Shown: piece after piece, positions 43,986-44,163 of the stretch | How the letters are laid out: every line of letters starts with the position of its first letter | Position numbering within the stretch: the first letter of the stretch is position 1 | NCBI RefSeq assembly: GCF_024502345.1 | Contig: NZ_JALDNN010000001.1 | Source: Escherichia coli | Lineage (GTDB): Bacteria; Pseudomonadota; Gammaproteobacteria; Enterobacterales; Enterobacteriaceae | Strand: one strand, 5' to 3' | DNA length: 64,000 nucleotides | Translations under genes and position numbers: made by a program | Notes under the pieces: generated by a model | Told to the model about the DNA's origin: nothing | The model's input: the letters and a program-made list of their open reading frames with translations, nothing else | Databases searched by the model: none

Positions 43986-44163
43986 TAAGCCGGATAAGGC
44001 GTTTACGCCGCATCCGGCAACGATGCCGACTGCCTGATGCGACGCTTGCGCGTCTTATCAGGCCTACAAATTCCCGCACCCTCCGTAGGCCGGATAAGGC
44101 GTTTACGCCGCATCCGGCAACAGTGCCGACTGCCTGATGCGACGCTCGCGCGTCTTATCAGGC
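43986..44163. repeat. Tandem pair of REP/BIME elements
   Basis: Two ~75-bp near-identical units (gccggataaggcgtttacgccgcatccggcaa...gcgtcttatcaggc). Confidence 0.8.

Follow-up and report, generated by a model that had tools for sequence, protein, structure and literature searches.

REP elements that stabilise mRNA and BIMEs that attenuate transcription are reportedly exemplified by the malE-malF REP and by the work of Espeli and colleagues from 2001. The BIME-2 family is defined by tandem Y and Z2 units in alternating orientation, 2-12 in number, which are extragenic and length-polymorphic between strains (PMC3333891; PMC1187871). Binding of TnpA-REP needs the conserved tetranucleotide GTAG on the 5' side of the REP, together with a mismatch in the stem (PMC3333891). 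The naRNA4 family was defined from REP325, an array located between yjdM and yjdN in K-12 that consists of six 77-bp Y-linker-Z2 repeats and five near-identical 'U' spacers, and whose transcription from the yjdM promoter has been suggested (Qian et al, 2015). Deletion of REP325 in K-12 brings the yjdM/yjdN RNA ratio from ~35 to ~1, with yjdN up ~8-10 fold and yjdM down ~3 fold, and it also changes growth (bioRxiv 10.64898/2026.03.23.713779). According to the same preprint, transcripts of the array form a ladder of truncated RNAs, in which a four-hairpin product is the main stable form, with about half of the signal; bicyclomycin raised read-through only when the full 12-hairpin array was present, two- and four-hairpin fragments being insensitive; and the native locus showed a modest, context-dependent stabilisation (~3 fold).

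The element considered here lies in a stretch of 64,000 nucleotides of E. coli DNA, the whole of which we call the window. We identify it as a two-unit allele of REP325, a BIME-2 between yjdM and yjdN, orthologous to the six-unit array of K-12. An initial annotation had described a tandemly duplicated REP/BIME unit between phnA and yjdN, and the repeat search bears this out: an 82-nt direct repeat (43982-44063 and 44082-44163) is identical at 77 of 82 positions (94%), with 100 nt from start to start, and it holds four palindromes in which Y and Z2 alternate. The near-identity of the two units also stands, since 74 of 78 positions agree when they are bounded as originally proposed (43986-44063 and 44086-44163). 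The statement that they follow each other directly has to be corrected, as a 25-nt spacer separates them. A 33-nt core, comprising the Y REP and the bases AAC, is the same in both copies and found no match in 100 dinucleotide-preserving shuffles of the window. Tandem Repeats Finder, at a minimum score of 30, reported no array at the yjdM-yjdN spacer, probably because the array spans fewer than two full 100-nt periods. The neighbouring genes were correctly named, phnA being yjdM, and both are encoded on the same strand (Table 1). The array is wholly contained in the 257 bp (43971-44227) between the yjdM stop codon and the yjdN start. The yjdM product is assigned to the Pfam families Zn_Ribbon_YjdM and YjdM, and the exact YjdN protein of the window is widespread.

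Table 1. Coordinates of the array, its parts and its surroundings in the window.
Feature	Position	Strand	Basis or remark
Promoter-like site upstream of yjdM, CCGACA-17-TATAAT	43539..43567	+	Consensus scan, 10/12 matches; prediction only
yjdM (phnA) CDS, 111-aa zinc-ribbon protein, stop TGA at 43968-43970	43636..43970	+	ORF, lying inside 43488-43970; RefSeq naming of homologue
Unit 1 (Y - linker - Z2), corresponding to a single 77-nt naRNA unit in REP325	43988..44064	+	RF02564, 106.8 bits, full-length 1-77
Y-type REP hairpin 1	43989..44018	+	Imperfect palindrome; RNA hairpin -21.0 kcal/mol, z = -5.1
Intra-unit linker of unit 1, 13 nt, AACGATGCCGACT (motif 'l' of Qian 2015)	44019..44031	+	Unpaired in predicted fold
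Z2-type REP hairpin 1, inverted orientation (iREP), followed by CTAC	44032..44063	+	Inverted repeat; -21.4 kcal/mol, z = -6.6
Inter-unit spacer 'U', 25 nt, CTACAAATTCCCGCACCCTCCGTAG	44064..44088	+	C-rich (11 C, 3 G); unstructured, fold = 0 kcal/mol
Unit 2 (Y - linker - Z2)	44088..44164	+	RF02564, 104.7 bits
Y-type REP hairpin 2, preceded by canonical GTAG (44085-44088)	44089..44118	+	Inverted repeat; RNA hairpin -21.5 kcal/mol
Z2-type REP hairpin 2 (iREP), stem longer by two pairs, followed by AGCC instead of CTAC	44130..44165 (Z2 core 44132-44163)	+	Inverted repeat, 16-nt arms; -25.9 kcal/mol
Spacer and yjdN leader	44166..44227	+	Contains conserved motif ACTACACTTAACTGGCTTCTCTTAACTGAGGT
yjdN (phnB) CDS, 147-aa VOC/glyoxalase-family protein	44228..44671	+	ORF; RefSeq annotation of homologous loci

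The composition of the array places it in the BIME-2 family. Both Y units are identical to the Y of the internal K-12 REP325 units, and the Z2 units differ from the K-12 Z2 at 0-1 positions. The orientation alternates, the reverse complement of Z2 fitting the Y pattern GCC[G/T]GATAAG...CGCATC[C/A]GGC, with linkers of 13 and 25 nt. Four palindromic units follow a 100-nt period and are wholly extragenic, and the number of units ranges from 1 to 7 among sampled E. coli genomes. From these features we assign the element to BIME-2, from which it shows no difference in kind: the Y/Z2 alternation, the tandem arrangement, the extragenic position and the length polymorphism are all those of the family. 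The AA/GC stem mismatch is found in both Y units. The inter-unit spacer is bounded by CTAC (44064-44067) and GTAG (44085-44088), so placed that the two REP heads face each other; the canonical tetranucleotides are confined to these two inner REPs, the two outer ones having lost them (GTAA at 43985-43988 in place of GTAG on the left, AGCC for CTAC on the right). Folding of the whole region gave z = -7.4 against shuffles. The minimum-free-energy fold contains a long-range pairing of Y1 with Y2, to which we prefer the four local hairpins as the predicted co-transcriptional structure. Two ORFs within the array, one on each strand (44037-44213 on + and 44003-44173 on -, 56-58 aa), were rejected as repeat artefacts. 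A 'hypothetical protein' is annotated inside the orthologous array in some RefSeq genomes, most likely an annotation artefact.

Both units are full-length members of the Rfam family RF02564 (naRNA4, CssrE): each covers positions 1-77 of the 77-position model on the strand of yjdM and yjdN, with a score (Table 1) well above the gathering score of 59.5, and with the same two-hairpin structure. The same model also matches, at 69.1 bits, a REP doublet located directly after phnD (46640-46720, - strand). RF02564 is in effect a generic model of Y/Z2 doublets rather than one specific to the REP325 locus, and because it recognises the unrelated phnD doublet, family membership says nothing specific about function. 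This bears on the proposal that the units are processed to a 77-nt nucleoid-associated RNA which acts with HU to bridge cruciform DNA and to condense the chromosome. The high Rfam scores and the fold into the two required hairpins agree with it, as do the HU binding, the nucleoid decondensation on REP325 deletion, the rescue by plasmid-borne naRNA4 and the bridging seen by atomic force microscopy that were reported by Qian et al (2015), an account repeated in a 2019 review. However, a 2026 preprint with an author in common with the original study (Adhya) found no stable HU-naRNA4-cruciform complex, no change of nucleoid volume on deletion or overexpression, no REP-REP contacts in Hi-C and only ~1-2 copies of REP325 RNA per cell. 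The 69-bit match after phnD and the presence of one unit only in ~61% of E. coli genomes also speak against the proposal. The model of nucleoid condensation by HU and naRNA4 is now disputed, and we regard it as a very improbable account of this locus.

The identity with REP325 is substantiated by the surroundings of the array. The window and K-12 have identical sequences on the left (GAAAAAGAACTGATTGTATTGTGATCGGTA) and on the right (GCCTCTCATCTGTATAAATTTCGAACTACA) of the array, and the same two flanks and the same spacer are found in all seven loci compared. A non-orthologous origin of the two arrays was excluded by these common flanks. The array of K-12 MG1655 (naRNA1-6, earlier nc5) agrees with that of the window in its locus, its strand relative to the genes, its outer flanks, its 77-nt unit and its 23-25-nt spacer, whereas it comprises six units, twelve hairpins and five spacers against two, four and one in the window. 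The distance from yjdM to yjdN is 657 bp in K-12 and 257 bp in the window, a difference of exactly four 100-bp periods. The spacer of the window is identical to four of the five K-12 spacers. Unit 1 shows 2-7 differences in 77 positions from the K-12 units. Its initial A, which produces GTAA, marks it as a 'first-unit' type, and its Y-loop, TTTA, is that found in the internal units of K-12. Unit 2 is most like the last K-12 unit, the sixth, with which it has in common the linker AACAGTGCCGACT and the Z2 loop CGCTCGCGCG, and it ends in GGCA as in one-unit strains.

Variation of REP copy number between strains had been asserted in the initial annotation, together with a comparison of E. coli genomes as the way to check it, and this comparison confirmed it. 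The two gene flanks alone served as the query against 5,426 complete E. coli genomes, the span being read between them; 60 rows were sampled at even steps down the ranking and one partial match was left out, so that 59 genomes were used. A single unit was found in 36 of the 59 (~61%), two units in 4 (~7-9%), four in 5, five in 4, six in 9 (~15%) and seven in 1, while no sampled genome had three. The conversion of span to unit number was confirmed on one fetched locus per size class (1, 2, 4, 5 and 7 units, and K-12 for 6), on which units were counted by a Hamming scan; the fourth unit of one 4-unit locus, which has a 2-nt indel, was recognised from the span and the trailing sequence. As an independent test, a 43-nt query across the spacer junction was present in 2158 of the 5426 genomes (39.8%), with 1 to 8 junctions per genome, in agreement with the 39% of sampled genomes that have two or more units. 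Since the other 60% of genomes have no such junction anywhere, the spacer is specific to the yjdM-yjdN locus, a specificity that holds at the level of the exact 28-nt word. No exact match to the junction was found when one genome from each of 100,044 species was searched.

Two-unit alleles were found in O157:H7, O121:H19 and other strains. Every sampled O157:H7 genome has one junction, hence two units, and every sampled K-12 derivative has six units; this uniformity within the two lineages checked indicates that the locus is polymorphic, not hypervariable. The exact array haplotype of the window is absent from the 5,426 complete E. coli genomes, the best match being 99.1% identical over 321 nt, and for the segment 38000-50000 the best of these genomes is 98.4% identical over 12 kb. 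The six-unit REP325 of K-12, which is the model REP of functional studies, is a minority allele, and conclusions tied to the length of the array, such as its partial Rho dependence, may fail for most strains.

The origin of the array was approached through other species. A degenerate pattern for the C-terminus of PhnA, applied to one genome per species, returned 120 loci, in 31 of which yjdN directly follows phnA. The majority of these 31 spacers measure 80-190 nt and are devoid of a unit of the E. coli type. A single Y-type REP is found in some Citrobacter species, one complete unit in Pseudocitrobacter faecalis, and two decayed units in the representative of a divergent Escherichia species. 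After the P. faecalis unit come first CCTACAACCTCCCGCCCCCTC and then ATCTGTACAAAATTCGAAC (junction ...|ATCTGTA), the former corresponding to the E. coli spacer (CCTACAAATTCCCGCACCCTC) and the latter to the E. coli right flank. As the spacer thus aligns with the ancestral 3' flank of a single unit, it can be read as former flanking DNA; its final five bases (CGTAG) are similar to the sequence on the left of unit 1 (CGGTAA). We conclude from these alignments that the array grew by tandem duplication of a block of ~100 bp, made of unit and flank, and not by repeated insertion of REPs, and that in-register expansions and contractions came afterwards. The right flank of one-unit E. coli alleles is shortened as in the multi-unit alleles, which makes secondary contraction their probable origin. 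The changes in copy number could be driven by homologous unequal exchange or by the activity of TnpA-REP, which recombines BIMEs in vitro (PMC3333891). Another BIME of the window (51962-52044) pairs a Y-type REP with a second REP in inverted orientation, and its linker CTACAAATGCGCTCCCCGTAG (related linker at 51992-52012) resembles the REP325 spacer; this likeness suggests that the inter-unit spacer may be a variant of a common head-to-head BIME linker.

A strong hairpin is found in the phnA-yjdN spacer of all 31 species, with best energies from -14.6 to -38.7 kcal/mol, in sequences that are unrelated. For 21 of the 31 species it was stronger than every one of 30 dinucleotide shuffles, and the median z is -2.9. 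The hairpin families differ, with Y/Z2 in E. coli, a palindrome of the Salmonella/Enterobacter type, and, in several Citrobacter, a hairpin followed by TTTATTT, which looks like an intrinsic terminator.

These data may be set against the idea that the array has no selected role and is a selfish or neutral repeat, a REPIN/BIME kept by the RAYT transposase (TnpA-REP) and by unequal recombination, with a copy number that drifts. Units numbering from 1 to at least 7, the commonest state being the minimum of one, would be expected on such a view, and length polymorphism is general to BIME-2 (PMC3333891; PMC1187871). TnpA-REP cleaves and recombines BIMEs in vitro in a reaction that needs GTAG (PMC3333891), which the two inner REPs of the window retain, as GTAG/CTAC, and REP325 figures as a predicted RAYT-associated REPIN in a separate preprint. 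Against neutrality, deletion of the K-12 array measurably alters the expression of both neighbours, as well as growth; the copy number is constant in all sampled O157:H7 and K-12-derived genomes; and a strong hairpin kept at this position in 31 of 31 related species through unrelated sequences argues for selection on structure. We therefore hold a wholly neutral array to be rather unlikely. Neutral extra units would be compatible with a functional first unit, and the neutrality of the extra units is plausible.

We propose that the two-unit allele probably acts at the RNA level, where it would stabilise the yjdM mRNA and attenuate read-through into yjdN. By analogy with the orthologous K-12 array, it would be co-transcribed with yjdM, and its G+C-rich stem-loops, predicted at -21 to -26 kcal/mol each, would shield the yjdM message upstream of them against decay from the 3' end. 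They would also stop or attenuate transcription before yjdN, resulting in a high yjdM:yjdN ratio. Extrapolating from K-12, an allele with four hairpins and one spacer may be mainly a Rho-independent stabiliser and a partial attenuator, weaker than the 12-hairpin array. The hairpin at the same position in 31 of 31 species, in unrelated sequences, supports a structural role at the 3' end. The locus resembles the REP stabilisers and BIME attenuators in that its stem-loops are also stable, lie in a 3'UTR or between cistrons of the same strand, and are devoid of a U-tract; at REP325, both effects are reported for one element in K-12. The low functional expectation expressed in the initial annotation undersells the locus, since REP325 is the best-studied REP array and its deletion in K-12 changes the yjdM/yjdN ratio.

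Local features are consistent with a stabiliser and attenuator. A scan for intrinsic terminators over 43971-44227 returned no terminator-like site and no T-tract after any hairpin, the bases directly after the four hairpins being, in order, AACG, CTAC, AACA and AGCC; the identity of the element as an intrinsic (Rho-independent) terminator was rejected on this ground. A promoter scan between the array and yjdN returned no sigma-70-like match. The predicted promoter upstream of yjdM is the likely source of the transcripts that enter the array. A palindrome, GCAAAAAGATTATTTTCTTTTTGC, lies at 43468-43491 in the divergent region between crfC and yjdM, and the scan called it terminator-like on both strands.

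The position of the first REP, 14 nt after the yjdM stop when GTAA is counted and 18 nt from it to the first paired base, brings to mind the model of Liang and Deutscher, in which a REP hairpin near a stop codon stalls the terminating ribosome and would here lower the output of YjdM. One preprint places REP325 among the REPs that lie within the 15-nt limit, and the general phenomenon is summarised in PMC12306157. The distance of 14-18 nt is borderline, and removal of REP325 from K-12 lowered yjdM mRNA instead of raising it (10.64898/2026.03.23.713779), so that translational control of this kind has little chance of being the main role of the array. A role of the DNA itself has also been considered, in which the BIME-2 would be a site of binding and cleavage by DNA gyrase, or would extrude cruciforms, and would thereby manage local supercoiling between yjdM and yjdN. 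BIME-2 elements are reported to be gyrase targets in vivo (Espeli & Boccard 1997, cited in PMC12306157; see also PMC1475751), and in supercoiled DNA the palindromes could form cruciforms (Qian et al, 2015). The genes affected by deletion of REP325 were nevertheless not enriched for supercoiling-sensitive genes (2026 preprint), and we give such a DNA-level role scant credence.

Several considerations, besides the modest and context-dependent effect in K-12, temper our reading of the array as an RNA stabiliser and attenuator. Its functional source is a single preprint, which contradicts earlier papers of an overlapping group. Most E. coli genomes have one unit, and the extra units may therefore be selectively neutral. 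In addition, the conserved motif upstream of yjdN could be an independent promoter or regulator site, in which case the picture of an operon with an attenuator would be less complete. This motif, ACTACACTTAACTGGCTTCTCTTAACTGAGGT (44189-44221), is situated just upstream of the yjdN start and contains a 13-nt direct repeat (44190-44202 and 44204-44216), with the conserved CTACACTTAAC at 44190-44200. Its CTACACTTAA..GG and GAGGT parts are retained in ~25 of the 31 Enterobacteriaceae species with the same gene order, the remaining spacer being unrelated. A search of Rfam gave no match for the motif, which might serve as a promoter -10 element (TACACT), as the site of a regulator or as a leader element.

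It can also be hypothesised that the number of units is a heritable dial and that its mechanism differs between short and long arrays, the n-1 C-rich and unstructured spacers of an array of n units forming together a loading site for Rho. A Rho loading site lies upstream of the release sites and is unstructured, rich in C and poor in G. The 25-nt spacer has no predicted structure and counts 11 C and 3 G; it is short, however, and the window array has only one. On this hypothesis, the one- and two-unit alleles (~70% of E. coli, the window included) would only stabilise the yjdM mRNA and weakly pause the polymerase, and arrays of four to seven units would add Rho-dependent termination before yjdN. 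It would, if true, explain why Rho dependence in K-12 was seen only with the full array, and it would make the widely used six-unit 'model REP' of K-12 unrepresentative of the species. Spacers and rut sites are not discussed in the preprint (10.64898/2026.03.23.713779). We offer this hypothesis as a speculation that is more probably wrong than right by a good distance.

The element, its locus, its family and its variation in length between strains are already known from the literature, and a catalogued repeat at a catalogued locus is in itself of little consequence. What is added here is small, namely the census of copy number, the origin of the spacer from flanking DNA, and the suggestion that C-rich spacers may serve as Rho loading sites in proportion to the number of units. 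Elsewhere in the window, the enterobacterial sRNA family STnc630 (RF02052) is matched over its full length by 38156-38321 on the - strand, at 178.5 bits.
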